From Gemmatimonadota bacterium (lineage in GTDB: Bacteria > Gemmatimonadota > Gemmatimonadetes > Gemmatimonadales > GWC2-71-9): a stretch of DNA of 64,000 nt. Location: assembly GCA_003222195.1 (NCBI GenBank), contig QHVB01000026.1:71662-135661 (forward strand), given 5' to 3'. The translations under genes and the position numbers were made by a program. The notes beneath the pieces were generated by a model. That model did no database searches. It was not told the DNA's origin and saw nothing but the letters and a program-made list of their open reading frames with translations. Of the stretch, positions 5,959 to 30,673 are shown one piece after another (within the stretch, counting starts at the first letter, position 1; each line of letters opens with the position of its first letter).

Positions 5959-7847
5959 ACGTGACGTTGCTCGTCTTCGCGCTCGCCGTGCAGCAACCTC
6001 AGGACACCGTCGTCCTCAAGCCGGTGGTCGTCACCGCGACGCGGGTACCGGTCGCGGCCGAGCTCGTCGCATCGGCGGTGACGGTGCTTCGCGGCGCGGA
6101 CCTCGTCGCGCAGGGTGTGCGCACGGTGGCGGACGCGTTGGAGACGGTTCCGGGCGTGCACATCGCCGCGACCGGGAGCGTAGGTGGCCAAACGTCCCTC
6201 TTCATGCGCGGCGGCCAGAGCAACTACGTGAAGGTCCTGCTGGATGGGGTGCCGTTGAACCAGGCCGGCGGCGGGATCGATCTCGCGAATCTCACCACCG
6301 ACAACGTGGACCGCATCGAGATTGTGCGGGGACCCGCGAGCGTGCTGTACGGCTCCGACGCGATGACCGGCGTCGTCCAGATCTTCACACGCGTAGGCGC
6401 AGGGGGCACCGGTGCGCCGCGGATGGGCGCGGAGCTGCGCGCGGGGACGTACGGGTCGACGGATGGCGCAATCGAGCTCCTCGGTGGAACGCCTCGCGTC
6501 GGTTACGCGGCGCGCGTTTCGCGCTTTTCGTCGGACGGCCTGTATGCGTACAACAATCAATACCGCAATAGCGTGGTGAACGCGCGGGTGCAGCTTCGGC
6601 CAGATCCACGCACCGACATGAGTCTCGCGTATCGCTACGGCGACGATGTCTATCACTTTCCGACCGACGGCACGGGGACGCCTGTGGACTCGAATCAGCA
6701 CGCCGCCGAACGCGGGCCGTTGTTCAGCGTCAGTGCCCGCCGCGTTTTCGCGGCACACCTCGATGCACGAATCAGCGCGGGCCTCAAGGAGGCGCGCTTG
6801 TTGTACGACAACCCGCCGGACTCCGCCGGCGACGTGACGTTTTGGAGCCGCGACTGGGTACGACGTGCGACGACGAGCGCTTTGGTCAATTGGAATTCCG
6901 GAACCGGCACGTCACTCGCGTGGGGCATCGAGTACGAAGACGAGCGCCAGCGCGGCACGAGCCTGTTCAGCGCGTCTTATGGGACGTTCCCCGATTCCGT
7001 CAGGGTGCAACGAAACACCACCGGCTACTTCACGCAGGCGGTGATCGCGGCTGGCCGCGCCGCGCTGACACTCGGCGGACGGTTGGACGACAACTCCCAA
7101 TTCGGCACGCATGCCACCTATCGCGGAGGACTGGTCTACCGGCTGGCCGCCGGGGTCCGGCTGCGCGCCTCGGTCGGGACGGGATTCAAGGAGCCGACGT
7201 TCTACGAGAACTTCGCGCGCGGATTCGTGACCGGAAATCCCAGTCTCGATCCGGAGCGGTCCCGCAGCTGGGAGGCGGGAATCGAGCGGGGCGGCATCGC
7301 GGTGGCGTACTTCAACCAGCGCTTCCGGGATCTCATCGAGTACAACCCGGCGCCCCCGGCGGGCCAGCCCAACTACTTCAACGTGGACGGCGCCGTAGCC
7401 GACGGCATCGAGATCGAGGGGGCGGGGGCGTTTTCGCGGGCCGTCAGCGGATCGTTGCGCTATACCTATCTCCACACGCGCGTCGTGGAGTCGGGCGCGC
7501 CGGGCGATCCGGATGGCTTGTTCGTGCCTGGCAAGTCGCTCATCCGCCGTCCCGCACACACGCTGGCACCACAAATCGTCGCAGCCTGGAGCCATCGCGC
7601 CCGGGTGACGATCGGCGCGCTGTGGGTGGGGAGGCGCGACGACCTCGACTTCCGCCGTCCCGTTGGGCAACGGCGCGTCGTGGTGCAACCCTACACGCGC
7701 GTCAACGTCGCCGCGGAGTACGGACTCGGACGGGTGGTCCTGACCGGGAGCGCCGCCAACGTGTTCAATGACCAGCGGCAGGAGCTGCCCGGGTTTCGCG
7801 TCATGGGCCGGGTGCTATTCCTTGGGCTACGCCTTGCGGTTGATTAG
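5955..7847 (+). CDS. TonB-dependent receptor (BtuB-like)
   Basis: Plug domain motifs (VVVTATR, IEIVRGPASVLYGSDAMTGVVQIFT), beta-barrel repeats and a C-terminal aromatic-rich end. ATGA overlap with the ATPase gene. Confidence 0.9.
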   Translation: MNVTLLVFALAVQQPQDTVVLKPVVVTATRVPVAAELVASAVTVLRGADLVAQGVRTVADALETVPGVHIAATGSVGGQTSLFMRGGQSNYVKVLLDGVPLNQAGGGIDLANLTTDNVDRIEIVRGPASVLYGSDAMTGVVQIFTRVGAGGTGAPRMGAELRAGTYGSTDGAIELLGGTPRVGYAARVSRFSSDGLYAYNNQYRNSVVNARVQLRPDPRTDMSLAYRYGDDVYHFPTDGTGTPVDSNQHAAERGPLFSVSARRVFAAHLDARISAGLKEARLLYDNPPDSAGDVTFWSRDWVRRATTSALVNWNSGTGTSLAWGIEYEDERQRGTSLFSASYGTFPDSVRVQRNTTGYFTQAVIAAGRAALTLGGRLDDNSQFGTHATYRGGLVYRLAAGVRLRASVGTGFKEPTFYENFARGFVTGNPSLDPERSRSWEAGIERGGIAVAYFNQRFRDLIEYNPAPPAGQPNYFNVDGAVADGIEIEGAGAFSRAVSGSLRYTYLHTRVVESGAPGDPDGLFVPGKSLIRRPAHTLAPQIVAAWSHRARVTIGALWVGRRDDLDFRRPVGQRRVVVQPYTRVNVAAEYGLGRVVLTGSAANVFNDQRQELPGFRVMGRVLFLGLRLAVD

Positions 7848-7883
7848 CTTCCCACTCTTGTCCTTACCGGTGGGAGGGTGTTG

Positions 7884-9851
7884 ATGCGCCGCTTCGTTTT
7901 TGCAGGGCTGTTTTTCCTCATCGCGCGACCCGCGATGTCCCAGGCCCCGCACATCACACCCGCGGGCGATCCGTCTGTCCGGAACGACACGATCTATAAG
8001 CTGGCCGTCAATCCTGCCGACTACGCGGACGACGATTATGTCTATCTGTTGGACGACGGGGTGTTGCGGTTCGAGCCTGACGGCCGCGGCAGCCGCACCT
8101 ATCGGCAAGTCGTCCAGATTCTGAATCAGGACGGCGCGGAAGCGTGGGGCGAGCAGAGCTTCTCCTACTCGAGCGGCTCGGAGCGGCTCACGGTCAATTG
8201 GATCCGCGTCCTCAAGCCGAACGGCGACGTGATCAGCGCACAGCCGGCGCACGAGCAGGAATCGCTCGCGCCGGTGGCCTTCGATGCTCCGGTCTATTCG
8301 GATGAGAAGGTCCGGCGCGTGACGTTGAGCGGCGTCGCGCCGGGAACACTTGTCGATTGGAGCTATACCGTCGAGCGGGTGAAGCCGCTCGTGCCGGGTG
8401 ACTATTACAGCGGCTGGCGCGTGACCACGGGGCTGCTCACCCGGCGCTCGCGCCTGATTGTCGACGTGCCGTCATCGGTCACGCCCCGCATTCAGGAGCG
8501 CAACGTTCACTTCAAGCGGCTGGATGTGGAATCCCACGGTCGCCGCGTGTACACCTGGGCGACCAAGGACGTACAGAAGATTCAAGGCGAGCCATTTGCG
8601 GCCTCGCCCAACACCCTCTCGGTGCACATCGACGTGGCCGCGCCGATCAGCTGGGCCGATCTCGCCAAGTGGTACGCCGGCCTTTCGACGGGCCGCTACG
8701 CGCTGAATCCCGCGCTCGAGACGCAGCTCGCCGAGCACGTGAAGGACGCGCACACGCTGGAAGATTCATTGCGCGCGGTGCATCGGTGGGTGTCGCAGGA
8801 TTTCCGCTACGTGTCGCTGTCCCTCGGCATTGGCGGGTACCTGCCGCGGATGCCGGCTCAGGTGCTGGAAACGCGCTATGGTGACTGCAAGGACAAGGCG
8901 ACGCTGTTCATCGCGCTGGTGCGGCGGCTCGGCCTCAAGGCCTATCCGGTGCTGCTGAGCGCCAGCGGCAGCGCCGACTCGACGCTGCCGACCGTCCAGC
9001 AGTTCGATCATATGATCGCGGCGGTGGATCGTCCCGAGAAGAATGGCGGCCGCATCTACCTGGATCTCACCTCGGAGCTGACGCCGTACGGGGAGCTGCC
9101 ACCGGCCGAGGAGGGCTCGTTCGTGCTCGTCGTCCACGATGACGGCACATTCGAGGAAGTGACTCTTCCCGAGACCGCGCCCGCCGCGAACCGCTCCGAC
9201 ACGCACATTGTCGGGGAGCTCAGCGCCGACGGCCACTTCACCGGCCGGTACACCGAAACCAAGACTGGCGGCTTGCAGTACGGGCTGCGACGCGCTTACG
9301 CCCGGGTGTTCAGCAAAGACGAGCTTAGTCGTCTCACGCAGGCGCTCGCCAATGGCGTATTCTCCGGCGCATCGGGCGACAGCCTCACCCTGTTCGACGG
9401 CCGCGACCTCCGCGCAAAACCGCAGGTGACTCTGACCGTGCACGACGCCCCCGTGCTGTCGAGCGGCGGCGGCACGCGCATCTTCACCTTGCCCACGGCG
9501 CTGCCGAACTTCGGCTCGCTGGGGCTCGCCTCGCAGCTCGAACGGCGCAAGCCACGCCGCTTCCCGATCGATATCGGTGCGGTCATCGGTCCGATCGAGA
9601 GCGTTGCGGAGCTGCGGATGACTCTGCCGGCCGGGTGGAAGGCGGAGCTGCCGCCCAACGTTAGCGAATCGAGTCAATTCGGCAGCTACAGCGCCGAGTA
9701 CGCGCAGGAGGGTCGCGAGCTGCGGATCTCGCGCCGCATGTCGGGTCACCGCGGCACCGCGCCGCCCGAGGCGGTAGACGCCCTCATCACCTGGCTGCGG
9801 GCGATCTCCAAGGACGACGTCAAGTTCATCGTGCTCCAGCCACGCGAATAA
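7884..9851 (+). CDS. DUF3857 / transglutaminase-like domain protein, secreted
   Basis: Signal peptide, and a transglutaminase-like core RYGDCKDKATLFIALVRRLG...FDHMI (Cys-His). GGGAGG SD lies 7 nt before ATG 7884. Confidence 0.7.
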   Translation: MRRFVFAGLFFLIARPAMSQAPHITPAGDPSVRNDTIYKLAVNPADYADDDYVYLLDDGVLRFEPDGRGSRTYRQVVQILNQDGAEAWGEQSFSYSSGSERLTVNWIRVLKPNGDVISAQPAHEQESLAPVAFDAPVYSDEKVRRVTLSGVAPGTLVDWSYTVERVKPLVPGDYYSGWRVTTGLLTRRSRLIVDVPSSVTPRIQERNVHFKRLDVESHGRRVYTWATKDVQKIQGEPFAASPNTLSVHIDVAAPISWADLAKWYAGLSTGRYALNPALETQLAEHVKDAHTLEDSLRAVHRWVSQDFRYVSLSLGIGGYLPRMPAQVLETRYGDCKDKATLFIALVRRLGLKAYPVLLSASGSADSTLPTVQQFDHMIAAVDRPEKNGGRIYLDLTSELTPYGELPPAEEGSFVLVVHDDGTFEEVTLPETAPAANRSDTHIVGELSADGHFTGRYTETKTGGLQYGLRRAYARVFSKDELSRLTQALANGVFSGASGDSLTLFDGRDLRAKPQVTLTVHDAPVLSSGGGTRIFTLPTALPNFGSLGLASQLERRKPRRFPIDIGAVIGPIESVAELRMTLPAGWKAELPPNVSESSQFGSYSAEYAQEGRELRISRRMSGHRGTAPPEAVDALITWLRAISKDDVKFIVLQPRE

Positions 9852-9880
9852 TCTCACTCCTGCCGAGCGCGACCGAGATT

Positions 9881-10681
9881 GTGTACGCGCTCGGACTCGA
9901 GGACCGCCTCGTCGGGATTTCGCACAGCTGCGATTACCCCCCGAGCGTGAGCGATCGGCCGCGCCTCTCGCGACCTCGGTACAACATCGCCGGCCTGTCG
10001 AGCGGTGAGATCGATGCGGCGGTCCGTGCCGCGCTGCGCGACCACGGCAGCGTGTACGAGATCGACGTCGCCGCGATCAACGCGCTGAATCCGGATCTCG
10101 TGCTCACCCAGGGCATTTGTGATGTGTGTGCAGTGCCTGAGAGTCAGGTCATCGAAAGCTTTGGGGCGGGGATTCGTGTCTTGTCACTCGATGCCCACGA
10201 TATGGCCGCGATCTTCAGGAGCATTTGCGACGTCGGCCGTGCGACCGGTGTCGATGAACGAGCTGAGCGTTTGATCGCGAATTTGCGTCGGCGCATCGAT
10301 GCGGTTCGCGAGCAGGTCGAGGGGCGGCCTAGGCCGCGCGTCCTCGCGCTCGAATGGCTCGATCCCCCCTACGTACCGGGCCACTGGGTACCCGAGCTCA
10401 TCGGTATCGCCGGCGGCGATCTCGTCGCGGGAACGGCTCGGCGGCCGTCGTATCGGATGGAATGGTCGGACCTGCGCGCGCTCCAGCCCGACGTCGTCCT
10501 CATCATGCCGTGTGGGTTTAACCTGGCAGAGACCAGACGGGAAGCGGCGCGGTATGACGAGCCGCTGCGAATGTTGGGGGGCCGCCAGCAGCTCCTCGAC
10601 GCATCATCGTACTTCAGCCGCTCTGGTCCGCGAATTGTGGACGGACTGGAGATTCTGGCGTCGACTATATTCCCCTCGTGA
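9881..10681 (+). CDS. periplasmic-binding-protein (type 8, BtuF-like) family protein without signal peptide; start uncertain
   Basis: LVGISHSCDYPP, PDLVL and DPPYVPGHW motifs. The conserved first strand IISLLPSATEIV lies in-frame upstream of the first canonical start. The probable start is ATA 9848, overlapping the upstream TAA. Confidence 0.75.
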   Translation: MYALGLEDRLVGISHSCDYPPSVSDRPRLSRPRYNIAGLSSGEIDAAVRAALRDHGSVYEIDVAAINALNPDLVLTQGICDVCAVPESQVIESFGAGIRVLSLDAHDMAAIFRSICDVGRATGVDERAERLIANLRRRIDAVREQVEGRPRPRVLALEWLDPPYVPGHWVPELIGIAGGDLVAGTARRPSYRMEWSDLRALQPDVVLIMPCGFNLAETRREAARYDEPLRMLGGRQQLLDASSYFSRSGPRIVDGLEILASTIFPS

Positions 10682-11457
10682 GTCTCGTTTCAACGCCGGC
10701 AATCGTTCTCCGGACCTACCGCTACAGCGAAACGTCGAAAATCGTGCGCCTGGCGACGCGCGATTACGGCGTGCAGAGCGCGATCGCCAAAGGTGTGCTT
10801 CGGCCCCGCAGCCCGTTTGGCGCGGCGCTCGAGACGTTGAGCGAAGGCGTGGCGCAGCTCTATCACAAAGAGACGCGCGAGCTCCAGACCCTGGCCGCCT
10901 TCGACGTGATCGAGCTCCGCCGGGGCCTGGCGGATGACCTGGGCCGGTTTGCGGGGGCGGCGGCGCTGTCCGAAGTGATGCTGAAGATGGCGCCTCCGGC
11001 GCCGCTGCCCGCCGCCTACGAAGCGTTCATCCTGGGATTGGATGCCTTGGTCCGCGCCGAGCCGGGCCAGACCGACGCGGCGGCGGTGCGCTGGCTCTGG
11101 CTGCTCGTGGGAGTGCTCGGCTTCGCGCCGCAGCTCGATGCGTGTGTGCGCGACGGCAACCCAGTCTCCGGAACGGTGGCGTTCAGTGTCGCCGACGGAG
11201 GCGTCCTGTGCGCGAAGTGCGCGGGTCCCCAACCGCCGACCAGGCTGCCGCCGCACGCCTATCGCGATCTCGTGGCCTTGAACGACGAGCAGGTCCCACT
11301 TCCCACGCTCGATGCGGCACACGCCGCTGCCCACCGGCGTCTCATCGCCCGCTTCGTCCGTCACCATCTCGACGAAACGGGACGCAATGGCAATGAGCCG
11401 AAGTCGAGCGCCGTAGACATCTGGGAGCGCCGCGCGTGGGCTCACCCCGGTTCGTAA
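10678..11457 (+). CDS. recO: DNA repair protein RecO
   Basis: N-terminal OB-fold pattern TPAIVLRTYRYSETSKIVRLATRDYG and a C-terminal Cys cluster (CxxC). GTGA overlap with the upstream gene. Confidence 0.9.
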   Translation: MSLVSTPAIVLRTYRYSETSKIVRLATRDYGVQSAIAKGVLRPRSPFGAALETLSEGVAQLYHKETRELQTLAAFDVIELRRGLADDLGRFAGAAALSEVMLKMAPPAPLPAAYEAFILGLDALVRAEPGQTDAAAVRWLWLLVGVLGFAPQLDACVRDGNPVSGTVAFSVADGGVLCAKCAGPQPPTRLPPHAYRDLVALNDEQVPLPTLDAAHAAAHRRLIARFVRHHLDETGRNGNEPKSSAVDIWERRAWAHPGS

Positions 11458-16609: not shown

Positions 16610-17059
16610 ATGGCCGCCGCGCTGGAGCAGGCGCGCCGCGCCGCTGCCCAAGATGAAGTCCCGATTGGCGCGGTCGTGATGCGTGGCGACGAGATCGTCG
16701 CCGAGGCGCACAACGAAACCGTCGCGCGTCAGAATCCCACGTATCATGCGGAGTTTCTGGCCATCGAGCGTGCGCTCGAGGCGTTGGAGACCGATCGGCT
16801 CACCGACTGCACGCTCTACGTTACGCTCGAGCCGTGCGCGCAATGCGCCGGCGCGATCGTGCTGGCAAAAGTGGGGAAGCTGGTGTTTGGGGCCTATGAC
16901 GAGAAGGCGGGGATGTGCGGGTCGGTGGGCGATTTGGTGCGGCATCCGCGGCTGAATCACCGCGTCGACGTCAGAAGCGGCGTCGAAGCTGAAGCGTGCG
17001 CCGAGCTGCTCAAGGATTTCTTTTCAGCAAGGCGTCCAGCGTCTCAGCAGCCTCGCTGA
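16610..17059 (+). CDS. tadA: tRNA adenosine(34) deaminase TadA
   Basis: HAEFLAIE and TLEPCAQCAGA zinc-binding deaminase motifs. About 150 aa from ATG 16610. Confidence 0.9.
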   Translation: MAAALEQARRAAAQDEVPIGAVVMRGDEIVAEAHNETVARQNPTYHAEFLAIERALEALETDRLTDCTLYVTLEPCAQCAGAIVLAKVGKLVFGAYDEKAGMCGSVGDLVRHPRLNHRVDVRSGVEAEACAELLKDFFSARRPASQQPR

Positions 17060-18137
17060 GCTGTTCGTCGGAGACGTAGGGCGCGGGCCCCAACCGAAGG
17101 GTGTCGCCCCGGTAGTCCGTCCAGATATTCTGCTTGCGCAGCGCCTTTTGAATCTTTGCGGCTCGCGTGGCAGGGACCGCCAGGAAGCCGCCAATGGCGT
17201 CGTTCCTCGTTTGTCCCGACAGAATCTCGAGCTGATGCTGGCTGAGCTCTCGCAGCCTCTGCGAGGTCAGTTTCTGCTCTTCAAAAAACTTGAATACGGC
17301 TGCCGCCCGATAATGACTCGTAAAGTCATAGGTCGCGCCGGCAAATCGCGCGGGGCCAGGACCGTATGCAACCGAGCCGCTCCTGGGCGCGCGACTCAAA
17401 TCGGCGAACTCACTAAACCATCCCGTGACCACCGGCCGGAGGTCGCAGTGCTCCGGGAATCGCAGAAACGCATTGCCCGGCCCCAGCTGGCAGTACTTGT
17501 AACCGCCCCCGACCACGTACGCGCGCTGCAGCCCGTGCTCGGAGAGCGAGAACGGCACGACGTTGAGCGCGTGATAGGCATCCACGACCAGATCGGCACC
17601 CACGCGCTCGCAGGCCTCCTGGACTGCCCGGAGATTCGGGACGATATACGCATTCGAGTACAGGACCGCCGAGACCAGCACTGCCGCCGTGCGGTCGTCG
17701 ATCGTTATGGCGAGCCGTTCGGCCAACGTCGCTGCGGGCATTGCCGGCACCTTGATGACCTCGATGCCTTCCTCCGCCAGCCGATCGAGCTGGCGACGGA
17801 TCGTGTGAAACTCGCCGTCCGTCGTGACTAACTGCGGCCGGTTACGCAGCGGTAGCGCCGACAGGAACCGCACGACCACCTCATGCGTGTTCTGCGCGAG
17901 CGCGATGCGCTCAGGCGTGTCGTCGAGCAGCCGCGCAAAGCCGCGCCGCACCTCCTTGGCCTTCTGGAACGCGAGGTCCCAGACGTCATCGACATGCTCG
18001 GCCGTGTCGAGCCACGCCTGCTGCTGTGCCTCGAAGGCGACATCGGGCCACGCCTGATGGGAGTGCCCAGTCAGCAGAATGCGCTCAGTGACGCGAAAAC
18101 GACGGTAGTGCTTCGCCAGCTCTTGCGGATTGATCAC
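17010..18137 (-). CDS. kynU: kynureninase
   Basis: Class-V aminotransferase fold with kynureninase-like N-terminus (ILLTGHSHQAWPD). The GTG start overlaps the kynA stop (GTGA). The listed longer ORF overlaps kynA. Confidence 0.85.
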   Translation of the reverse strand: MINPQELAKHYRRFRVTERILLTGHSHQAWPDVAFEAQQQAWLDTAEHVDDVWDLAFQKAKEVRRGFARLLDDTPERIALAQNTHEVVVRFLSALPLRNRPQLVTTDGEFHTIRRQLDRLAEEGIEVIKVPAMPAATLAERLAITIDDRTAAVLVSAVLYSNAYIVPNLRAVQEACERVGADLVVDAYHALNVVPFSLSEHGLQRAYVVGGGYKYCQLGPGNAFLRFPEHCDLRPVVTGWFSEFADLSRAPRSGSVAYGPGPARFAGATYDFTSHYRAAAVFKFFEEQKLTSQRLRELSQHQLEILSGQTRNDAIGGFLAVPATRAAKIQKALRKQNIWTDYRGDTLRLGPAPYVSDEQLSEAAETLDALLKRNP

Positions 18138-18916
18138 AGCTCGGCGCGAATCGCCCAAAGGTCGGGGAACGCCGGCTGGTTGAGCGTGGTCATGAGGTAC
18201 TCGGCACCGGACGAGCCGCCCGTCCCCGGCTTCGTTCCGATCGTCCGCTGCACCATCTTCACGTGGCGATACCGCCACTCCATGAACCCCTCATCGAGGT
18301 CCACCAGCCGCTCAGCGATCTGCGCCACTGTCGGGTTTTTCTTGTAAACCTCGACGAGGATCCGCTGGACCTCGGATGAAGGCTCGTACAACTGGCTGAA
18401 ATCCCGCTGGAGCAACGCCTTCGGTACGGGATACTTGTTGGTCGCGAGATACTGCAGGAAAGCATCCCACACCGTAGGCTGATTGAACCGCCGCTCGACG
18501 CGTTTCCGATTCTCGCTGCCCTCCGGATACCGCTCGAACGACGGCCGGCCTTTCTTGCCCAGAATGAATTCGATTTCGCGGAATTGATGCGACTGAAAGC
18601 CGCTCCCCGACTCGAGCCGGGCCCGGAACGCCAGAAAATTGAGCGGTGTGATCGTCTCGAGTACGTCGATCTGTGCAACTAATGTCTTGAGGATGGTGAG
18701 GATTCGCTTCAGAGTCGCTGCTGCGAGCGGGGTGTCGTTTGCGCGCAGGAGCTCTTGGAGATAGTCGAGCTCATGCAGCACTTCCTTGAACCAGAGCTCG
18801 TAGACCTGGTGGATGATGACGAAGAGGGTCTCGTCGTGCTCGAGCTCCCCGGGCCGAGGCTGCTGGAGCGATAAGAGCTGGTCGAGCTTGAGATAGCTGG
18901 AGTATGTGACAGTCAT
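18134..18916 (-). CDS. kynA: tryptophan 2,3-dioxygenase
   Basis: [20 protein letters not shown]...[17 protein letters not shown]...[21 protein letters not shown] is a canonical bacterial TDO. ATGA overlap with the upstream gene. Confidence 0.9.
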
Positions 18917-21162
18917 AGCCTCGGTTTGTACTTGTTGAGCGTCGCGTAGGGATCGGGCCAGGGCAGCGGATGACCCTGTTCGTAGGCCGCGTGTCTGGTC
19001 CAGTACGGATCCCACAGATGCGCGCGCGCGAGCACGCAGAGATCGGCGCGCCCCGCCGCCAGGATCGTGTTCACATCCTGATACGACGAGATATTGCCGA
19101 CCGCCATCGTCGCGATGCCCACGTCGTGCCGGATCCGGTCGGCGAACGGCGTCTGAAATTGCCGGCCATACTGCGGCTTGGCCTCGGCCACCGTCTGGCC
19201 CGCGGAGACGTCCGTGATGTCGCAGTCGTGCGCCTTGAGCAGGCGGGCTACTTCGACCGCATCCCCGGGCTGCATCCCCCCGGGCGCCCAGTCGACTGCC
19301 GAAATCCGCACGGACAGCGGTTTGTGGGCGGGCCAGGCGCCGCGCACCGCGTCGAACACCTCGAGCGGAAACCGCATCCGGTTCTCCAGCGAGCCGCCGT
19401 ACTCGTCGGTGCGCTGGTTCGTGAGCGGCGAAATGAAGCTCGCGAGCAGATAGCCGTGCGCGAAATGCAGCTCGAGGAGATCGAATCCGGCGTCGTGCGA
19501 CATCTGCGCCGCGCGGACGAAATGCTGCTTCACCTCGTCCATGTCGGCCCGGGTCATCTCCTTCGGCACCTGGCTGTAAGGGAAGTAGGGCAGCGGGGAC
19601 GCCGAGATGATCGGCCAGTTGCCGTCCGGGAGCGGCTCGTCCATGCCCTCCCACATCCGCTGCGTCGACGCCTTGCGTCCGGCATGGCCGAGCTGCATGG
19701 CGATCTTCGCGCCGCTGTTCACATGCACGAAATCCACGATGCGCTTCCACGCCGCAACATGGTCCGGCTTGTACATCCCGGTGCAGCCCGGCGAGATGCG
19801 GCCCTCGCGTGACACGTCGGTCATCTCCGTGAACACGAGCCCAGCGCCACCGATCGCGCGGCTCCCCAGGTGCACCAGGTGCCACTCGTTCGGCATGCCG
19901 TCCTCGGCGACGTACTGACACATCGGCGACACGACGACGCGATTGCTCAGCACGAGGTCGCGCAGCTTGAACGGCGTGAACATGGGAGGGGGTGCGCGGT
20001 GCGCGGTAAGCGGTACGCGGGACTGCTCTTCGGCGCGTTTCGCGTACCATTCGTCGATGCTTTCAACGAACTTTGGGTCGCGAACCTTCAAGTTGTCATG
20101 CGTTATCCTGAGGCTGCGGGTCAGGAGATTGAACGCGAACTGCAGCGGCTCGAGGTTCATGTAGCGTTCGGTGTCCTCGAACCACTGCAGGCTGACCTGC
20201 GCGGCGCGCTGCAGGCTCTCCACCGCCGGACGCCGCTCGGCCTCATACTCGGTGAGCGCGAACGGCACGTCGGGATGGCGCTGCAAGGCGTTCGCCAGCG
20301 CGATAGCGTCTTCGATCGCGAGCTTCGTCCCGGACCCCACCGAAAAATGCGCCGTGTGCGCCGCGTCGCCCACGAGCACGACGTTGCCGTGCGACCAGGA
20401 CGCGTTTTTGATCGTGACGAAATTGCGCCACAGCGAGCGATTTTTGAGGAGGCGATGGCCCTGGAGCTCGTCCTTGAAGAGCGCCTCGCAGAATTCGACC
20501 GTGTCGGCTTCGCTCGCCCGATCGAGTCCCGCCTTGCGCCACGCGGCCTCCGTGGTCTCGACAATCAACGTCGAATGCCCCTTCTCGTACTGGTAGGCGT
20601 GGACGCGCCACAGCCCGTGCTTATCGCCCTTGAAGTAGAAAGTGAACGCGGGGAAGGGACGGGTCGTGCCGAGCCAGACGAAACGGTTGGGCCGCTCGTC
20701 CAGCGTGGGCTGGAAGTGCTCGACATAGGTCGAGCGCACCACGCTGCTGAAGCCGTCGGCACCGACCACGAGATCGGCATCGGCGTACACCGCTGGATCG
20801 GTGACGTCGGTCCCGACCTCGATACACACGCCCAGCTCCTCACAGCGCCGCCCCAGGACCCGCAGCAGTGCGCGGCGCGACAGCCCGCTGAAGCCGTGTC
20901 CACCTGAGCGGATGACGTGGCCGCGGTAGTGGATGCTGATGTCGTCCCAATGAAAGAACTCGTGCGCCAGCGCGTCGTACGTCTCCGGATCGGCCGTCGC
21001 CAGGTTGTTTTGGGTCGCGTCCGAAAAGACCACGCCAAAGCCGTAGGTATCGTCTAGCCGATTGCGCTCCAGGATCGTGATCTCGTGCCGGGGATGCGCG
21101 TTCTTCATCAGGATGCCGAAGTAGAGCGCCGCGGCCCCGCCGCCAATCGTCACGATTCTCAT
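18913..21162 (-). CDS. bifunctional FAD monooxygenase / old-yellow-enzyme reductase (2-aminobenzoyl-CoA monooxygenase/reductase or salicylyl-CoA 5-hydroxylase family)
   Basis: 749 aa. N-terminal GxGxxG FAD hydroxylase ([28 protein letters not shown]) is fused to an OYE-like NADH:flavin oxidoreductase (SPMCQY...HLGSRA..., HFAHGYLL). Confidence 0.8.
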
Positions 21163-22295
21163 TTGACGAGCTGTCCCGCGATGATGAGATGTTGGATTTC
21201 CGTCGTTCCTTCATAGATCCGCAACGCGCGGACTGACCGATACAGCCGGTCCACCGGATTGTCGGCGAGTACGCCACGCCCTCCCAGGATCTGGACCGCG
21301 TCATCGACAATGCGCTGCGCCGCTTCGGTAGCGAACGCCTTCGCCATCGCAGCCTCGAGCGTGACGCGCGGGGCTCCGCGGTCCTTTTCCCACGCGGCGC
21401 GATAGACGAGCAAGCGCGCGGCCGTCAGGTCGGTGGCCATGCGGGCCAGTTTCTCCTGAATCAGCTGGAACTCCGCGATCGGCTTGCCGAACTGCCGCCG
21501 CGCCTTCGCATGCGCAAGCGCTTCGGCGAGGGCGCGCGCCGCCATGCCACACGCCGCGGCGCCGACGGTGCAGCGTACCCGATCGAGCGTCGCGAGACCG
21601 AGCTTGAATCCTTCGCCATCAGTATCGAGCCGGCATGCACTTGGCACGCGTGCTTTCTGAAAGGCGATTTCGCCCAAAGGATGCGGGGCAGAAAGGACGA
21701 GGGTCCGCACCAGCCGTAGACCCGGCGTGTCTGCAGCCACCACGAAGCACGCGATACCCTTGTCCTTCTTGGCGCGATCGGTGGTCGCGAACACCGTGTA
21801 GAAGTCCGCAATGCCGGCGTTGGAAATAAATGTCTTGGTGCCCGACAGGACGTAGGCGTCGCCGTCCGGCTCCGCGGTTGCGCCGAGGGACGCAACATCG
21901 GAGCCGACGTCCGGCTCGGTCATCGCGAACGACGCCATCGCTCGACCCTGCATGGCCGGCTCCAGCCAGCGGTTGCGCATCGTGGCGTTGGCCGAGAGCA
22001 ACATCGGGACGACGCCGAGCGTCTGCAACGCGAACACGGCGTCGGCGAGCGGCGAGGCTGCGGCGAGGGCTTCGCGGATCAGGCAGCAGGCGCGCCAGTC
22101 CTGATCGCGAATGGGTTGCAACCACCCGACTGCGCCCAGTTTCACGAGCAGCTCGCGCGCCTGAACGCGCGCGGCGGTGTCGTCGGCCGGCTCGGCCAGC
22201 GGCGCGAGCACGCGAGTGGCAAACGCGCTCACCCGCTCGGCCAGCGTCACATGCTTCTCGTCGAGAAATGCGCGGACCGGCCCGGTGTCGACCAT
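21159..22295 (-). CDS. acyl-CoA dehydrogenase
   Basis: ACAD motifs ([34 protein letters not shown]). The ATG start at 22295 shares one nt with the upstream stop (a TTG at 22298 is also possible). Confidence 0.9.
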
Positions 22296-23083
22296 CAAGT
22301 GAATTTGGGGTCGCGCTTGGCGCGGAAGGCATCGTGGGCTTCCCGGAAGTTCGGCGCCTGCATCAGCTGCGCCTGGACTTCGGCCTCGTATGCAAGTGCC
22401 GCTTCGAAGTCGAGTGCCGCCTCGGCCTCGAGCGCCTGCTTCGTGACACCGAGGGCCGCCGACGGCCCGCGCGCCAACTTTTCCGCGACGGCGCGAGCTT
22501 CAACCAAGACCTGTGCCTGTGGGACGACGCGATTGTAGAGACCGATTTCGTGCGCCCGTTTCGCGTCGACGAAGTCGCCCGTCAACAGCATCTCGGTCGC
22601 GTGGCCATAGCCGACGATGCGGGGCAGGAGCCACGCGGCGCCCATGTCGGCCCCCGAGAGGCCGACCTTCGTAAAGAGGAAAGCGATCTTGGCGGATTCC
22701 GCCGCAATCCGCATGTCGCACGCAGCCGCGATGACCGCGCCCGCACCGGCCACCGTGCCGTTCAGAGCGCCGACGATGGGCCGGCGGCAATGCCGCATCG
22801 CGAGAATGAGGTCGCAGGTGAGGCGCGTGAACTCCTGCAGCGTCTTGAGATCGCGGCCGAGCAGCGCACCGATGATGTCCTCGACGTCGCCGCCGGAGCA
22901 GAAGGCGCGTCCGGCGCCCGTGATGATGATGGCGCGCACGCCCGGCTCGGTGTCGAGCCTCCGGAACGTGTCGCGAAGCTCCTGATAGACCTCAAACGTC
23001 AGCGCATTGAGACGTTCGGGCCGGTTGAGGGTGATGGTCGCGACCGCGGTCTTGGTGTCGAGATCATACAGAAGTGACTTCAT
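22295..23083 (-). CDS. enoyl-CoA hydratase/isomerase family protein
   Basis: MKSLLYDLDTKTAVATITLNRPERLNAL...GAGRAFCSGGD crotonase signature. ATGA overlap with the RidA stop. Confidence 0.9.
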   Translation of the reverse strand: MKSLLYDLDTKTAVATITLNRPERLNALTFEVYQELRDTFRRLDTEPGVRAIIITGAGRAFCSGGDVEDIIGALLGRDLKTLQEFTRLTCDLILAMRHCRRPIVGALNGTVAGAGAVIAAACDMRIAAESAKIAFLFTKVGLSGADMGAAWLLPRIVGYGHATEMLLTGDFVDAKRAHEIGLYNRVVPQAQVLVEARAVAEKLARGPSAALGVTKQALEAEAALDFEAALAYEAEVQAQLMQAPNFREAHDAFRAKRDPKFT

Positions 23084-23460
23084 AGGATCGCGACGGCCTC
23101 GATTTCGACGAGCGCTTTCGAATCCATCAGCGATTTTACCTCGACGACGGCCATGGCGGGATAATGGCGTCCCATATGTCGGCGGTGAACTTCGCCGAGT
23201 GGCGTGAGGTTGGCGAGGTACGCCGGGCGGTCCGTGATGTAGCAGACCATGCGACCCACGTTTTCCGGCTTGCCCCCCGCCGAGCGCACGACTTCCATCA
23301 CGCGACCCAGGGCGCCGTCCCACTGCGCCACGAAGTTCCCGACGGGAACAATCTGCCCGGCGACGAACAACACGCGGCCGCCTGTCTCGCCCAGCATCCC
23401 GTGATTCCAGCCACTCGGCCGCGCGCCGAACATGTCGGGATTGATGATCTCGAATGCCAT
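23080..23460 (-). CDS. RidA/YjgF family (reactive enamine/imine deaminase-like) protein
   Basis: 126 aa with the typical RidA length and C-terminal ...VEIEAVA pattern. Confidence 0.8.
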   Translation of the reverse strand: MAFEIINPDMFGARPSGWNHGMLGETGGRVLFVAGQIVPVGNFVAQWDGALGRVMEVVRSAGGKPENVGRMVCYITDRPAYLANLTPLGEVHRRHMGRHYPAMAVVEVKSLMDSKALVEIEAVAIL

Positions 23461-23467
23461 TGGTCTC

Positions 23468-24232
23468 CTATCCTGCGATCGTAACCGCGGTGCCGTTGAC
23501 TCGCTGGCCGTGGAGGTCGGCGAGCGTCAGGACCGCTGCAGCGACTTCGTCCGGCGTGATCAGCCGCCCCTGCGACGCCGACGCCAGCAGCGCGGACAGT
23601 GCCGCGTCGGGATCCTTGCCGGTTTTCGTAACGACACGCTCGACCGATTCCTTCGTCATCTCCGTATCGACAAACCCGGGGCAGACGGCATTGCACCTGA
23701 CGCCCGTGCCCTCGATCTCAGCTGCCACGCTCCGCGTCAGACCAATCACCGCATGCTTCGCCGCCGCATAGGCGGCGATGTAACGGCCACCCGCCAGCCC
23801 GGCGACCGATGCGACATTGACGATCGACCCCCGCTTGCGCTCGAGCATGCCACTCAGAAATGCGCGCGTGCAGAGAAACGTACCCGTCGCGTTCACCGCC
23901 AGCACCCGGTTCCAGTCCTCGAGCGTCGTTTTCACGAGCGGCGCACTGTGCGCCAGACCAGCGTTGTTGACCAGGATGTCGACGGAACCTGCGTGTCGCG
24001 TGGAGGCCTTGGCGAGATCGGCCACACTCGCCGCGTCGGTGACGTCGCAGTGCACCGCCCACGCCTTGCCGCCACGCCCGCGAATTTCGCTCGCCACGCG
24101 CTCGATGCGATCGGTGCGGCGCGCCGCGACGACGATCGCCGCACCCTCAGCGGCCAGGGCGTTCGCGATCGCGGCGCCGATGCCCTGGCCACCACCAGTC
24201 ACGACGGCGACCGCGCCGTCAAAGCGCCGCAA
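23468..24232 (-). CDS. short-chain dehydrogenase/reductase (SDR)
   Basis: TGGGQGIG cofactor motif, NNAG, and YAAAK catalytic motif. Confidence 0.9.
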   Translation of the reverse strand: MRRFDGAVAVVTGGGQGIGAAIANALAAEGAAIVVAARRTDRIERVASEIRGRGGKAWAVHCDVTDAASVADLAKASTRHAGSVDILVNNAGLAHSAPLVKTTLEDWNRVLAVNATGTFLCTRAFLSGMLERKRGSIVNVASVAGLAGGRYIAAYAAAKHAVIGLTRSVAAEIEGTGVRCNAVCPGFVDTEMTKESVERVVTKTGKDPDAALSALLASASQGRLITPDEVAAAVLTLADLHGQRVNGTAVTIAG

Positions 24233-24974
24233 TCACGGCCTCCTCGAGGATCGCGCCCAGCGTTTCTACCAGCCGGGACCCCTCGTCGGCACTGGCCGCC
24301 GCGGGATCGCCAAAGTAGGCGCGTGGGCCGCCCGCCTGCTCGAACGTCTGCTTGCCGGCGCGGATGGCGGCCGAGAGCGAGCGCGGGTTGGGCGCCAGCC
24401 CGCGCCGCAGCGCCTCGCGGACGGCAGCGGGACGCTCGCTCAGGACGATCGAGCTCTCGAACTGGCCCGCATGGCATGCGCCGCTCCGGAACTCGTCGCC
24501 CAGGCGCGAGCCCCACGGCTTGCGCGTGAGGTCCGGGAAGACGATCGGCAAGAGGCGGGCGCCGCTCGCCAGTCTCACCGCTTCATGCAGCGCCGTGAGA
24601 TGTTCCGGATCGAGGTGGGCGTTGGCGAGCGCCAGGAGACGGAAGCCGTGCTGTGACAAGCCTCGCGCGAGATCGACGACGAGCGCCGTGACGGTGACGC
24701 CGGAAATGGACAAAGTGCCGTGAAAGGCGGCGCCAAAGCCTGCCGTGGTGTAGGCCAACGGGGGCAGAATCAGCACCACCTTGTCCCGAGCCCCGAGTCG
24801 CTTGGCCCCAGCGCGCGCCATGGCGGTGGCGATCACGACATCGGTATCGAGCGGCAGATGGGGCCCATGGGCTTCGATGGCCCCTACCGGGAGCACCACG
24901 AGCGTGCGGTCGCGCTCGAGGTCCCTGACCTCCTCCCAGGTGAGTTGCGCGAGCTCATGAACCGGCATCATCAT
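24219..24974 (-). CDS. creatininase (creatinine amidohydrolase/ArfB/MftE) family amidohydrolase
   Basis: LPVGAIEAHGPHLPLDTD and ANAHLDPEH metal-binding motifs characteristic of the creatininase family. First gene of the minus-strand operon. Confidence 0.85.
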   Translation of the reverse strand: MMMPVHELAQLTWEEVRDLERDRTLVVLPVGAIEAHGPHLPLDTDVVIATAMARAGAKRLGARDKVVLILPPLAYTTAGFGAAFHGTLSISGVTVTALVVDLARGLSQHGFRLLALANAHLDPEHLTALHEAVRLASGARLLPIVFPDLTRKPWGSRLGDEFRSGACHAGQFESSIVLSERPAAVREALRRGLAPNPRSLSAAIRAGKQTFEQAGGPRAYFGDPAAASADEGSRLVETLGAILEEAVIAAL

Positions 24975-24982
24975 CCTTTGAC

Positions 24983-26506
24983 ATGACGCACGAGATCCCG
25001 GAGCGCCTCAACATCGCCGATTGGCTGCTCGACGCGCGCGTCCGCGAGGGAAGGGGAGACCGGCCGGCGCTGCTCACCGACCACGGCGCGCTGACCTACC
25101 GTGAGGTGCAGACGCTCGCGAATCGCTTCGGTCATCTACTAAAAAGTGCCGGAGTGGAGCCGGAACAACGCGTCATCATCGCGCTGCCCGACGGGCCGGA
25201 GTTCGTCGCCGCGCTGTTCGGCACACTCAAAGTTGGCGCTGTGGTGGTGATGGTCAACCCGCAGTTGGCCGTCGATGCGATCGAGTACTTCTACTCCTAC
25301 ACCAGGGCGACGGTCGCCCTCGTCCACCGGCACACCGCACCGGTTTTTCAGGCGGCGCGCAGCGCGGCTGGCAGCTACCTCAAGCAGATCATCGTCGTCG
25401 GTGAGTCGACGACCGCGCGCGCGATCGCGGGCGCCCCCCCGGACCTCGAGACGTTCCCGAGTCACCGTGACGATGCCGCGATCTGGCTGTTCTCCGGCGG
25501 CACGACCGGCAAGCCGAAGGCCGTGGTGCAGAGTCACGGCTCCTTCGCGAATACTACCAAGTGCTACGGGCAGGGCGTCCTCGGTCTGACCGAGCGCGAC
25601 ATCACCCTCGCCGTGCCGAAGCTGTTCTTCGGCTACGCGACCGGTTCGAATCTCTTCTTCCCGTTCTCGGTCGGCGCGGCGAGCGCCCTGTTTCCGGAGA
25701 AGAGCACCGCCGAGACCGTGTTCGCCAAGATCCGGAAATTCCGGCCGACCATCCTCGTCAACGTGCCCACGATGGTGAATCAGATGGTCGCCCACCCGGA
25801 CGCGGCGAAGGAGGACCTGTCGTCCCTTCGGCTCGCGACCTCCGCGGGCGAAGCGCTGCCGGTCGAGCTATACGAGCGCTGGCAGCAGACCTTTGGGATT
25901 GAGTTGCTCGACGGACTCGGTACCGCGGAGATGTGGCACATCTTCATCTCGAACAAACCCGGCGCCGTAAAACCCGGCACCCTCGGCACCGTCGTGCCAG
26001 GCTTCGACGTCCGAGTACGCGATGATCTCGGACACGATCTGCCGGACGGCGAGGTGGGCATGTTGTGGGTGCGTGGCGACTCACGCGCGATCGGGTACTG
26101 GCAGCAGCTGGAGAAGACCAAGGCCGCGTTTCGCGGCGAGTGGTACGTGTCCGGCGATTTGATCCGTCGCGACGTCGATGGCTACTTCACGTATTGCGGG
26201 CGCGCGGACGACTTGCTGAAGGTCGGTGGCCGGTGGCTCGCGCCGCAGGAAGTCGAAGGCTGCCTGCTGCAGCATCCGCTCGTGAAAGAAGTCGCCGTCG
26301 TGGGCGTCGAGGACGCGAGTGGGCTCACCAAGCCGCACGCGTTCGTTGTTGCGACGGAGCAACGACCCGGTCTCGCCGAAGAGCTTCAGGCATTCGCTCG
26401 CGAACGGTTGGAACCCTACAAGGCACCACGCGCCGTCAAATTCCTGGATGTGCTGCCACGGACGCACCTCGGCAAAGTCGATCGGGGCAAGCTGCGGCTT
26501 CAATGA
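24983..26506 (+). CDS. benzoate-CoA ligase family enzyme, probable 2-aminobenzoate (anthranilate)-CoA ligase
   Basis: Adenylate-forming motifs (FSGGTTGKPKAV, GEWYVSGD, GKVDR) and an N-terminus typical of benzoate-CoA ligases (NIADWLLD). Divergent from the catabolic operon. Confidence 0.85.
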   Translation: MTHEIPERLNIADWLLDARVREGRGDRPALLTDHGALTYREVQTLANRFGHLLKSAGVEPEQRVIIALPDGPEFVAALFGTLKVGAVVVMVNPQLAVDAIEYFYSYTRATVALVHRHTAPVFQAARSAAGSYLKQIIVVGESTTARAIAGAPPDLETFPSHRDDAAIWLFSGGTTGKPKAVVQSHGSFANTTKCYGQGVLGLTERDITLAVPKLFFGYATGSNLFFPFSVGAASALFPEKSTAETVFAKIRKFRPTILVNVPTMVNQMVAHPDAAKEDLSSLRLATSAGEALPVELYERWQQTFGIELLDGLGTAEMWHIFISNKPGAVKPGTLGTVVPGFDVRVRDDLGHDLPDGEVGMLWVRGDSRAIGYWQQLEKTKAAFRGEWYVSGDLIRRDVDGYFTYCGRADDLLKVGGRWLAPQEVEGCLLQHPLVKEVAVVGVEDASGLTKPHAFVVATEQRPGLAEELQAFARERLEPYKAPRAVKFLDVLPRTHLGKVDRGKLRLQ

Positions 26507-30251: not shown

Positions 30252-30611
30252 CTAGGTCGCGTCGTTCATCGAGATTTTTAGCTTCCACGTCAAGAAATGG
30301 GCCCTGCGTCCTTGGTTAGTAAGACTGGAGCACACGTCGTCCTTCAAATAGCCGAGCGCACCGGCCACCTCTAACTCATATTCGACCTCAGACAGCGATC
30401 CGAGAGACATGTCAAGAAAGCGTCGAAATTCGTTTCGGCCCTTTTTTGATGCGCCCTCGACGATATTTACGGCAGCCGAGAGCGCGGCACGGCGGAGTTG
30501 GGATGTCAGACCATATAGCTCATGTTTGGGAAAGCACTCGGTTGCCTTATAGACTGCAAGGACAAGCTTATGGCATTCCTGCCATGCCAAGAACCGTTTG
30601 TGTGTCGCCAT
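30252..30611 (-). CDS. four-helix-bundle protein (TIGR02436 / 23S rRNA intervening-sequence protein / Avd family)
   Basis: MATHKRFLAWQECHKLVLAVYKATECFPKHELYGLTSQLRRAALSAAVNIVEG...SLSEVEYEL is the family signature. Visibly lower GC than the flanks. The listed 519-aa ORF is a read-through artefact. Confidence 0.85.
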   Translation of the reverse strand: MATHKRFLAWQECHKLVLAVYKATECFPKHELYGLTSQLRRAALSAAVNIVEGASKKGRNEFRRFLDMSLGSLSEVEYELEVAGALGYLKDDVCSSLTNQGRRAHFLTWKLKISMNDAT

Positions 30612-30673
30612 GTGTCTTGATAGACAATTCGAGGTACAGAGCAGGACCATTTCCTCGCGCGGTTCATGTTTTT

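Follow-up and report, generated by a model that had tools for sequence, protein, structure and literature searches.

How is the formyl group removed in an operon whose tryptophan 2,3-dioxygenase would produce N-formylkynurenine, when no known type of kynurenine formamidase can be recognised around it? This question is raised by a 64,000-nucleotide stretch of Gemmatimonadota DNA, hereafter the window. An earlier note had described an operon with kynA and kynU, headed by a creatininase-family gene, and had proposed that this first gene is a non-orthologous replacement of kynurenine formamidase. Such a displacement is already known for this enzyme, as many bacteria use a cyclase-fold KynB, while eukaryotes and some bacteria use an alpha/beta hydrolase. 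The features of the locus are the following:

24983 to 26506, plus strand: aryl-CoA ligase (LIG) of the benzoate/anthranilate-CoA ligase family, 507 aa, divergent from CREAT (TIGR02262, 485.7 bits, cutoff 375)
24975 to 24982: spacer of 8 bp between the divergent starts (CREAT ATG at 24974, ligase ATG at 24983)
24219 to 24974, minus strand: CREAT, creatininase/formamide-hydrolase family (PF02633), 251 aa; candidate arylformamidase that heads the operon
23468 to 24232, minus strand: SDR, short-chain dehydrogenase/reductase (PF00106, E 1.6e-63), with a 14-nt overlap with the CREAT stop
23080 to 23460, minus strand: RidA/YjgF-family protein, enamine/imine deaminase family (PF01042, E 3.8e-12)
22295 to 23083, minus strand: ECH, enoyl-CoA hydratase family of the PRK08258 type (NF006107, 353.6 bits, cutoff 330)
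21159 to 22298, minus strand: ACAD, acyl-CoA dehydrogenase (PF00441, PF02770, PF02771)
18913 to 21162, minus strand: bifunctional FAD monooxygenase/OYE reductase of the 2-aminobenzoyl-CoA monooxygenase/reductase family, 749 aa (NF006101, 1150 bits, cutoff 1078)
18134 to 18916, minus strand: TDO, tryptophan 2,3-dioxygenase, 260 aa (PF03301, E 3e-62)
17010 to 18137, minus strand: KYNU, kynureninase-like PLP enzyme of a divergent subtype, closing the operon (PF22580 KYNU_C, a weak match with E 6e-7)

The eight genes from CREAT to KYNU, in the order listed, are tightly packed, with overlaps of 4-14 nt at the junctions except for a 7-nt gap between SDR and RidA. Overlaps of 4 nt are formed by the ECH start (ATG 23083) with the RidA stop, by the TDO start (ATG 18916) with the stop of the monooxygenase/reductase gene, and by the KYNU start (GTG 18137) with the TDO stop. 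A promoter scan of the operon region found no sigma-70-like sites. The ligase has benzoate-CoA ligase 2v7b (E 1e-118) and anthranilate-CoA ligase 4wv3 (E 4e-117) as its nearest PDB entries, and the monooxygenase/reductase shares 55% identity with homologs from Proteobacteria and Actinobacteria.

With respect to the kyn genes, the earlier description holds for kynA, as TDO is clearly recognised by PF03301, with 273 bits against TIGR03036, below the cutoff of 390.7. In the case of kynU it needs to be restricted. By its matches the gene is a divergent subtype, related to the Pseudomonas fluorescens kynureninase 1qz9 with E 1e-10 and 53% identical to a PGAP-annotated 'kynureninase' of a Streptomyces BGC. 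Moreover, going by its gene content, the operon belongs mainly to the 2-aminobenzoyl-CoA (anthranilate-CoA) pathway, with SDR, RidA, ECH, ACAD and the monooxygenase/reductase separating CREAT from kynA.

The CREAT open reading frame is genuine (24974 to 24219, ATG start). PF02633 was matched with E 2.2e-51 and 175.1 bits (cutoff 31.3) over residues 9-246, corresponding to model positions 1-237 of 238, and both motifs quoted earlier, GAIEAHGPHLPLDTDVV and ALANAHLDPEHL, were found, which confirms a creatininase-family gene at the head of the operon. The AF2 model (pLDDT 97.5, pTM 0.94) led in a Foldseek search against the PDB to creatininase-family structures for all of the best 26 matches (TM 0.69-0.76), creatininase itself giving a TM of 0.75 at about 25% identity. 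Residues E34, H36, D45 and H120 align with the same-numbered residues of creatininase. Together with H168 and E173 they are invariant in all 82 in-group sequences (query plus orthologs), and H168 and E173, which belong to the GACHAGxxE motif, are invariant in 11 paralogs as well. From this motif, not from an alignment, we infer that H168 and E173 correspond to creatininase H178 and E183. Altogether, by fold and sequence, CREAT is a member of the creatininase/formamide-hydrolase family with its predicted metal ligands intact.

The fold and the ligand set (E34, H36, D45, H120, E173, plus the H168 position) are common to CREAT and the PF02633 family, which includes creatininase, ArfB, BrbF, MftE and IolN. 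ArfB is a creatininase-family formamide hydrolase that acts on an N-formyl aromatic amine. For BrbF, removal of the formyl group from an N-formyl aminopyrimidine was experimentally shown (PMC9478397), in agreement with the earlier statement that the family contains formamide hydrolases. This chemical precedent, like the family membership with its invariant six-residue predicted active site, speaks for an arylformamidase.

CREAT could instead be an MftE-like peptidase or a true creatininase that came to lie in the operon by chance. These are its best NCBIfam matches, but the scores fall far below the cutoffs: 120.7 bits against 172 for MftE (TIGR03964), with all 50 subfamily members likewise under the cutoff, and 89.6 bits against 235 for creatininase sensu stricto (TIGR04448), where the match is limited to residues 10-187. 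Neither creatinine genes nearby nor mft genes in the window or related loci were found, and the operon position is conserved in at least five named bacterial groups, so that this explanation is effectively refuted. An assignment as IolN, the 3-dehydro-scyllo-inosose hydrolase (NF041098), was rejected as well (38.1 bits, cutoff 245). CREAT thus stays under the curated equivalog cutoff of each of the three, and its context is tryptophan/anthranilate catabolism, whereas the others of the family belong to riboflavin, mycofactocin, creatinine and inositol.

To the question of known formamidases, the answer was negative throughout the window, as had been claimed for kynB. Neither the strict (HxGTHxDxPxH) nor the loose (H-x3-H-x-D-x3-H) cyclase-family metal motif occurs in its six frames, and the window contains no HGG[YFGA]W motif. 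A tblastn search with the alpha/beta hydrolase adjacent to kynA in Azospirillum (arranged kynU-kynA-alpha/beta hydrolase) gave no match to the window, and Pfam scans of 30 other ORFs of the window detected neither a cyclase nor an alpha/beta hydrolase. Motif searches took the place of a canonical KynB query because no KynB was found beside kynA on plasmids (Paraburkholderia, Bacillus and Burkholderia neighbourhoods). The search covered the 64-kb window and flanks of +/-10 kb around 175 loci. In 2.05 Mb of related loci the KynB metal motif was not found, antisense artefacts aside, and the alpha/beta-hydrolase search returned one match only, a weak one. No KynB was seen beside the kyn genes of Gemmatimonadota, Eisenbacteria, Planctomycetota, Acidobacteriota and Myxococcota. 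At one locus, L026, an alpha/beta hydrolase follows KYNU; it was rejected as a formamidase, since a hydrophobic N-terminal leader, a GASYG elbow and the lack of an HGGxW motif make a secreted hydrolase the more likely reading than a formamidase of the cytosol. KynB (cyclase family, PF04199) and the Afmid-type enzymes catalyse the reaction proposed for CREAT (EC 3.5.1.9), and their genes often adjoin kynA/kynU. Both are unrelated to CREAT in fold and sequence, and neither the KynB metal motif (H-x3-H-x-D-x3-H) nor the HGGYW/GHSAG motifs were found in CREAT.

The next step concerns the company that CREAT keeps elsewhere. A first search gave 6,338 homologs at E <= 1e-10, and some 160 related loci, representing at least five named bacterial groups, keep the layout of the window; at locus L001 the 8-bp spacing between CREAT and ligase recurs as well. 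Linkage was counted in 34 non-redundant genome loci with full flanks, scoring kyn genes within 10 kb. The divergent LIG/CREAT pair is present in 31 of the 34 and ECH with ACAD in 30, while TDO or KYNU is found in 26 (both in 23) and kyn genes are absent from 8. The expected co-occurrence with kynA/kynU is therefore real, and it recurs in at least 24 metagenome loci, but linkage to the ligase and to the lower-pathway genes is at least as tight, which counts against an arylformamidase. TDO and KYNU close to those of the window (51-90% identity) and distant ones (26-48%) occupy three different positions around the cluster; these two differently related versions are found in different lineages, with KynB accompanying neither, which again favours an arylformamidase.

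Several reduced layouts were also identified. In L015 the order is LIG / CREAT-TDO-KYNU, with CREAT exactly between ligase and TDO; a metagenome scan for CREAT-TDO-KYNU triplets seeded on this locus returned mostly the canonical layout. L017 and L052 show KYNU-LIG / CREAT, L097 shows TDO-LIG / CREAT-thioesterase-Rieske oxygenase, i.e. another lower route, and L038, L055 and L089 show LIG / CREAT. That several lineages pair CREAT only with TDO, kynureninase or ligase favours an arylformamidase, as does the operon packing that takes in TDO and the kynureninase-like gene.

These neighbourhoods also define the main rival, namely that CREAT is a C-N hydrolase of the lower 2-aminobenzoyl-CoA pathway and a partner of SDR, RidA, ECH and ACAD or, as a variant, that it re-opens a lactam side product. 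The SDR gene directly follows CREAT in most related loci, SDR-RidA-ECH-ACAD follows it in 30 of the 34 full-flank loci, and the 14-nt CREAT-SDR overlap of the window fits the same picture. In loci L042 and L051 (CREAT-(ALDH)-SDR-RidA-ECH-ACAD) this block stands without a ligase, a monooxygenase/reductase or kyn genes in its vicinity, and L026 keeps CREAT-SDR-RidA together; these layouts too weigh against an arylformamidase. In P0145, a relative at 49% identity, SDR-RidA-ECH lies 5 kb downstream. Furthermore, a cyclic amide is the substrate of the family's founding member, IolN, which CREAT matches weakly, is named a ring hydrolase, and a 2015 review describes the lower pathway merely as 'beta-oxidation-like' (PMC4539516).

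However, the abm clusters argue otherwise. Those of Azoarcus evansii, Ralstonia and Phyllobacterium have the monooxygenase/reductase (55%), ECH, ACAD, SDR and RidA in common with the window. Unlike it, they contain a MarR regulator, their ligase is from another subfamily (34-35% identity), and they have no creatininase-family gene, TDO or kynureninase. In the window operon the kyn upper pathway is fused to the abm lower pathway. The two annotated clusters, of Ralstonia and Phyllobacterium, carry the same lower-pathway set, RidA included, without a creatininase-family gene, and CREAT, TDO and KYNU are missing from them together, in support of an arylformamidase. Full-length monooxygenase/reductase homologs occur on 240 of 72,556 plasmids, none of which carries a CREAT ortholog; above 37% identity, no ortholog was found on any of the 72,556. 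In addition, an enamine/imine deaminase is already supplied by RidA, and where the partners of CREAT are limited to ligase, TDO or KYNU, or belong to the Rieske-oxygenase route, the substrate of a lower-pathway hydrolase would not be made locally. We consider this role less likely than that of an arylformamidase.

Because linkage to kyn and to abm genes had to be told apart, distant subfamily members were tried as a tie-breaker and rejected: relatives at 44-47% identity (P0140, P0154, P0144, P0137) lie in unrelated contexts, so that below about 49-55% identity the orthologous group is no longer informative. These relatives have nearly all conserved residues in common with the CREAT group, a further point against an arylformamidase. 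Only P153 and N196 set the orthologs apart from out-paralogs, so no substrate signature was found, and sequence alone cannot separate N-formylkynurenine, N-formylanthranilate and non-formyl substrates.

The most conserved association, the divergent LIG/CREAT pair, which in Myxococcota is found by itself at identities as low as 49-51%, allows for a broader aryl-acylamidase. Such an enzyme would free anthranilate or another aromatic acid from non-formyl N-acyl or amide conjugates (e.g. N-acetylanthranilate, anthranilamide) for the adjacent ligase, which as a benzoate/anthranilate-CoA type requires the free acid. It overlaps with the arylformamidase reading, since N-formylanthranilate is one such conjugate. 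Against it, TDO is present in most clusters and its only product is a formyl amide, and no conserved nearby gene would make other conjugates. This makes the broader activity improbable.

A further comparison is offered by the Streptomyces modules (the S. goshikiensis plasmid BGC; antimycin AntN/AntP/AntF), in which ligase and TDO-kynureninase are divergent as in the window. In the S. goshikiensis BGC the subtypes match those of the window (ligase 48%, TDO 48%, kynureninase 53%), and the slot of CREAT is empty, which is counted for an arylformamidase. These modules contain no formamidase gene and are biosynthetic, whereas the window operon is catabolic. Since their TDO/kynureninase/ligase pathways run without a dedicated formamidase, the step need not be operon-encoded, a point against an arylformamidase.

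Taken together, CREAT is the best candidate for the missing deformylation step of the operon, and we infer, with a probability of about 0.5, that it is an arylformamidase with N-formylkynurenine or N-formylanthranilate as its substrate. The proposed replacement of kynurenine formamidase is partly supported, by a kyn/anthranilate context in which no other formamidase was recognised in the window and related loci. In literature searches, no published account was found that connects kynurenine formamidase, kynureninase or anthranilate with a creatininase or creatinine amidohydrolase.

Mechanistically, a metal-bridged hydroxide held by E34, H36, D45, H120 and E173 would attack the carbonyl of the formamide, and H168 would serve, by analogy with creatininase, as general base/acid. 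A two-metal centre with a histidine base would also resemble canonical KynB, which has a binuclear zinc site with a histidine base (PMC4243253). In the pathway, TDO would open tryptophan to N-formylkynurenine, CREAT would deformylate it ahead of kynureninase, the divergently transcribed ligase would form anthraniloyl-CoA, and the monooxygenase/reductase, RidA, SDR, ECH and ACAD would then degrade the ring. Alternatively, the divergent kynureninase may act first, with CREAT then deformylating N-formylanthranilate. In its boldest form, a formylkynurenine-accepting kynureninase would give the order TDO, kynureninase, deformylase, CoA ligase; with the deformylase just before the ligase, such a re-ordered kynurenine pathway would explain the very tight CREAT-ligase pairing. 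Most likely, the operon is a self-contained tryptophan-catabolic route that CREAT completes.

It is a more tentative proposition that the subfamily forms a third class of bacterial arylformamidase, unrelated in structure to the other two, which completes a tryptophan-to-anthraniloyl-CoA module in the phyla named above, where KynB was not seen beside the kyn genes. If true, kynurenine formamidase would have a third, creatininase-fold solution, and a large subfamily now called 'creatininase family protein' would be assigned a function. It would also fill an annotation gap in the tryptophan catabolism of abundant, mostly uncultured soil phyla and define a complete route of nine genes that leads from tryptophan through the 2-aminobenzoyl-CoA pathway, itself poorly resolved. 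Should CREAT belong to the lower pathway instead, it would supply a missing step of that pathway.

The open reading frame encoding CREAT, the creatininase-family protein considered here as a candidate arylformamidase, was judged to be real. Pfam PF02633 (Creatininase) matches it end to end (175 bits vs a cutoff of 31.3), and the two motifs named in the earlier note, EAHGPHLPLDTD and ANAHLDPEH, are both present in the translation. MftE (120.7/172), creatininase (89.6/235) and IolN (38.1/245) were rejected as identities, all NCBIfam scores being below cutoff, as was also the case in 50 of 50 diverse subfamily members tested; CREAT therefore belongs to a separate, unnamed subfamily. The structural modelling proposed in that note was carried as far as the fold: an AlphaFold2 model built on an alignment was very confident (pLDDT 97.5, pTM 0.94), and its significant PDB neighbours were creatininase-family structures only (TM 0.69-0.76, ~25% identity). 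Residues E34, H36, D45 and H120 align with the same-numbered creatininase residues. These four, and likewise H168 and E173, show no variation across 82 in-group sequences (query and orthologs) and 11 paralogs. Judged from these residues, the two-metal amidohydrolase machinery is predicted to be intact. As only P153 and N196 separate orthologs from paralogs in unrelated contexts, the CREAT sequence gives no substrate signature.

CREAT opens a series of eight co-directional genes: CREAT, SDR, RidA, enoyl-CoA hydratase (ECH), acyl-CoA dehydrogenase (ACAD), monooxygenase/reductase, tryptophan 2,3-dioxygenase (TDO) and a kynureninase-like gene (KYNU). Most junctions are 4-nt overlaps, with a 14-nt overlap at CREAT/SDR and a 7-nt gap at SDR/RidA.

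24974..24219, minus: CREAT, operon gene 1, ATG start, 251 aa
Operon gene 4, minus: enoyl-CoA hydratase (NF006107, above cutoff)
Operon gene 6, minus: bifunctional FAD-monooxygenase/OYE-reductase, 749 aa (NF006101, 1150 bits vs 1078)
Operon gene 7, minus: TDO
Operon gene 8, minus: divergent kynureninase-like enzyme (weak KYNU_C match; 1qz9 at E 1e-10)
24983..26506, plus: benzoate/anthranilate-CoA-ligase family gene, divergent, its ATG 8 bp from that of CREAT

The kynA and kynU previously claimed for this operon correspond to genes 7 and 8, the latter a divergent subtype. The 749-aa protein is assigned by its sequence to the 2-aminobenzoyl-CoA monooxygenase/reductase family. This gene content would encode a route from tryptophan via anthranilate to anthraniloyl-CoA, followed by a dearomatised ring and beta-oxidation-like steps, the ring-degradation part being of the Azoarcus type (summarised in PMC4539516). 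Formamide hydrolysis is the sole step without an obvious enzyme in the operon. The divergent starts (24974-24983; CAT CAT CAT CCTTTGAC ATG) leave so little room that either each promoter must be embedded in the neighbouring coding sequence or the starts as read here are not the real ones; the 8-bp spacing recurs in L001, a related locus, and is ~50-150 bp in other lineages. The nearest relatives of the TDO and kynureninase-like genes (17010-18916; 8977-10964 in locus L092) are not the usual kynA/kynU. Actinobacterial 'TDO family' genes share 48-52% identity with the TDO, as against 37-42% for annotated kynA, and the kynureninase-like protein misses the NCBIfam kynureninase model.

The absence of kynB from the window, as earlier stated, was borne out by several searches. 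Neither the strict nor the loose form of the KynB metal motif occurs in any of the six frames of the 64 kb, and the Afmid-type HGGxW motif is likewise missing from the window; tblastn with the alpha/beta hydrolase of an Azospirillum kynA operon gave no match there. When 30 other ORFs of the window were scanned with Pfam, only housekeeping families came up (ClpB, GroEL, Bat/MoxR operon, citrate synthase, TonB/FecCD transport, others), with no cyclase or alpha/beta hydrolase. In 2.05 Mb of related loci, no KynB-type motif was found beside TDO/KYNU genes. The Azospirillum sp. B510 plasmid operon (L177, 3739-6610) is kynU-kynA-alpha/beta hydrolase, and its hydrolase carries HGGYW and GHSAG, which we take to be motifs of Afmid-type formamidases. 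In Burkholderia multivorans, a homolog with 34% identity is encoded 1.6 kb away from kynA (L179, 7379-8089); both are annotated as 'alpha/beta hydrolase' only, or not at all. Locus L064, where neither TDO nor kynureninase occurs within 10 kb, has an alpha/beta hydrolase weakly similar to that of Azospirillum (29%, E 3e-5; ~7838-8500, minus), set between ECH and ACAD but in the reverse orientation.

Elsewhere in the window, a 23S rRNA-intervening-sequence protein (PF05635, E 8e-29; 30252-30650, minus) is flanked by the genes for an M20 peptidase and citrate synthase; in the syntenic L003 two genes of this kind occupy a similar position, between citrate synthase and 2-hydroxyacid dehydrogenase, and L001 has none. 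The Bat/MoxR-type operon (42376-50125) comprises a MoxR AAA ATPase, DUF58, a pair of VWA proteins, of which one carries TPR, and a BatD-like protein.

The source organism belongs to Gemmatimonadales. The nine window proteins were mapped onto 80 genome and 80 metagenome loci with CREAT orthologs (53-82% identity) from Gemmatimonadota, Eisenbacteria, Planctomycetota, Acidobacteriota/Thermoanaerobaculia and Myxococcota. The commonest layout was that of the window. Relatives at 44-47% identity stand in unrelated contexts, which bounds the orthologous group at ~49-55%. Neighbours were counted over a non-redundant set of 34 genome loci whose flanks reach at least 4 kb upstream and 9 kb downstream: the ligase accompanied CREAT at 31, ECH and ACAD at 30, the monooxygenase/reductase at 27, TDO or KYNU at 26 and both of these at 23. 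Co-occurrence with kyn genes was found, but the ligase and ECH+ACAD were commoner. Some Gemmatimonadota (L019 13918-15390, L061, L072) carry an extra 490-aa OYE (Oxidored_FMN) protein between ACAD and monooxygenase/reductase; four loci of Eisenbacteria (L020 17025-19673, L014, L040, L053) carry an 882-aa Ser/Thr kinase with PD40 beta-propeller repeats between TDO and KYNU. A Longimicrobiales contig (L032) has two CREAT copies ~9 kb apart (1598-2338, ~10651-11400), each ~64% identical to that of the window, the first alone pairing with a ligase.

As kyn linkage is the weakest association, with eight full-flank loci lacking a kyn gene within 10 kb, CREAT could instead hydrolyse a C-N bond in the lower 2-aminobenzoyl-CoA pathway. 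L042 (CREAT-SDR-RidA-ECH-ACAD) and L051 (CREAT-ALDH-SDR-RidA-ECH-ACAD) have no ligase, monooxygenase/reductase or kyn genes nearby, L026 keeps a CREAT-SDR-RidA block adjoining TDO-KYNU, and hydrolytic deamination of the enaminone produced by the monooxygenase/reductase is amidohydrolase-like chemistry. We nevertheless consider this role rather unlikely, since annotated Ralstonia and Phyllobacterium clusters around monooxygenase/reductase homologs share SDR, ECH, ACAD and RidA with the window, and also have MarR plus a ligase from another subfamily, but lack a creatininase-family gene, TDO and kynureninase. What the window operon has beyond these clusters is precisely CREAT, TDO, KYNU and a ligase of the benzoate type. 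No CREAT ortholog above 37% identity was found on 72,556 plasmids, 240 of which carry a full-length monooxygenase/reductase homolog.

Like the comparison with those clusters, the following observations speak for CREAT being part of the upper module, from tryptophan to anthraniloyl-CoA. Several loci have CREAT with upper genes only: divergent from the ligase and followed by TDO-KYNU (L015), opposite ligase-KYNU (L017, L052; Planctomycetota), opposite ligase-TDO (L097), or with the ligase alone (L038, L055, L089; Myxococcota). In the metagenome contig L097 (3911-5925), a hotdog thioesterase and a Rieske ring-hydroxylating oxygenase alpha subunit replace the usual lower-pathway genes, which suggests another lower route or fate for anthranilate or anthraniloyl-CoA. 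TDO/KYNU genes both close to the window's (51-90% identical) and distant (26-48%) occupy three lineage-dependent positions around the cluster. A Streptomyces goshikiensis plasmid BGC, which also carries an enediyne chromoprotein gene, has the same subtypes of ligase (48%), TDO (48%) and kynureninase (53%) in a like divergent arrangement, but the slot held by CREAT in L015 is empty. As such Streptomyces modules have no dedicated formamidase, deformylation need not be operon-encoded.

Archaeal ArfB is a proven formamidase of the creatininase family. Deformylation of N-formylkynurenine and of N-formylanthranilate are both classical arylformamidase activities. BrbF, another family member, has been shown to deformylate an N-formyl aminopyrimidine (PMC9478397), and KynB has a binuclear zinc centre (PMC4243253). 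Altogether, we give about even odds (0.5) to CREAT being an arylformamidase, with N-formylkynurenine or N-formylanthranilate as likely substrate. The proposal that it replaces kynurenine formamidase is partly supported: it gains from the upper-gene-only loci and the lack of a rival formamidase nearby, but loses from kyn linkage being the weakest of the associations and from the Streptomyces modules. The ligase being its tightest genomic partner would make most sense if CREAT made the ligase substrate from N-formylanthranilate: the divergent kynureninase would cleave N-formylkynurenine first, and deformylation by CREAT would then directly yield that substrate. A broader aryl-acylamidase feeding the same ligase seems improbable.

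The earlier note knew of no such enzyme, and our search of the available library likewise found nothing linking the family to kynurenine formamidase, kynureninase or anthranilate. If the arylformamidase role were confirmed, CREAT would give this known reaction its third fold.
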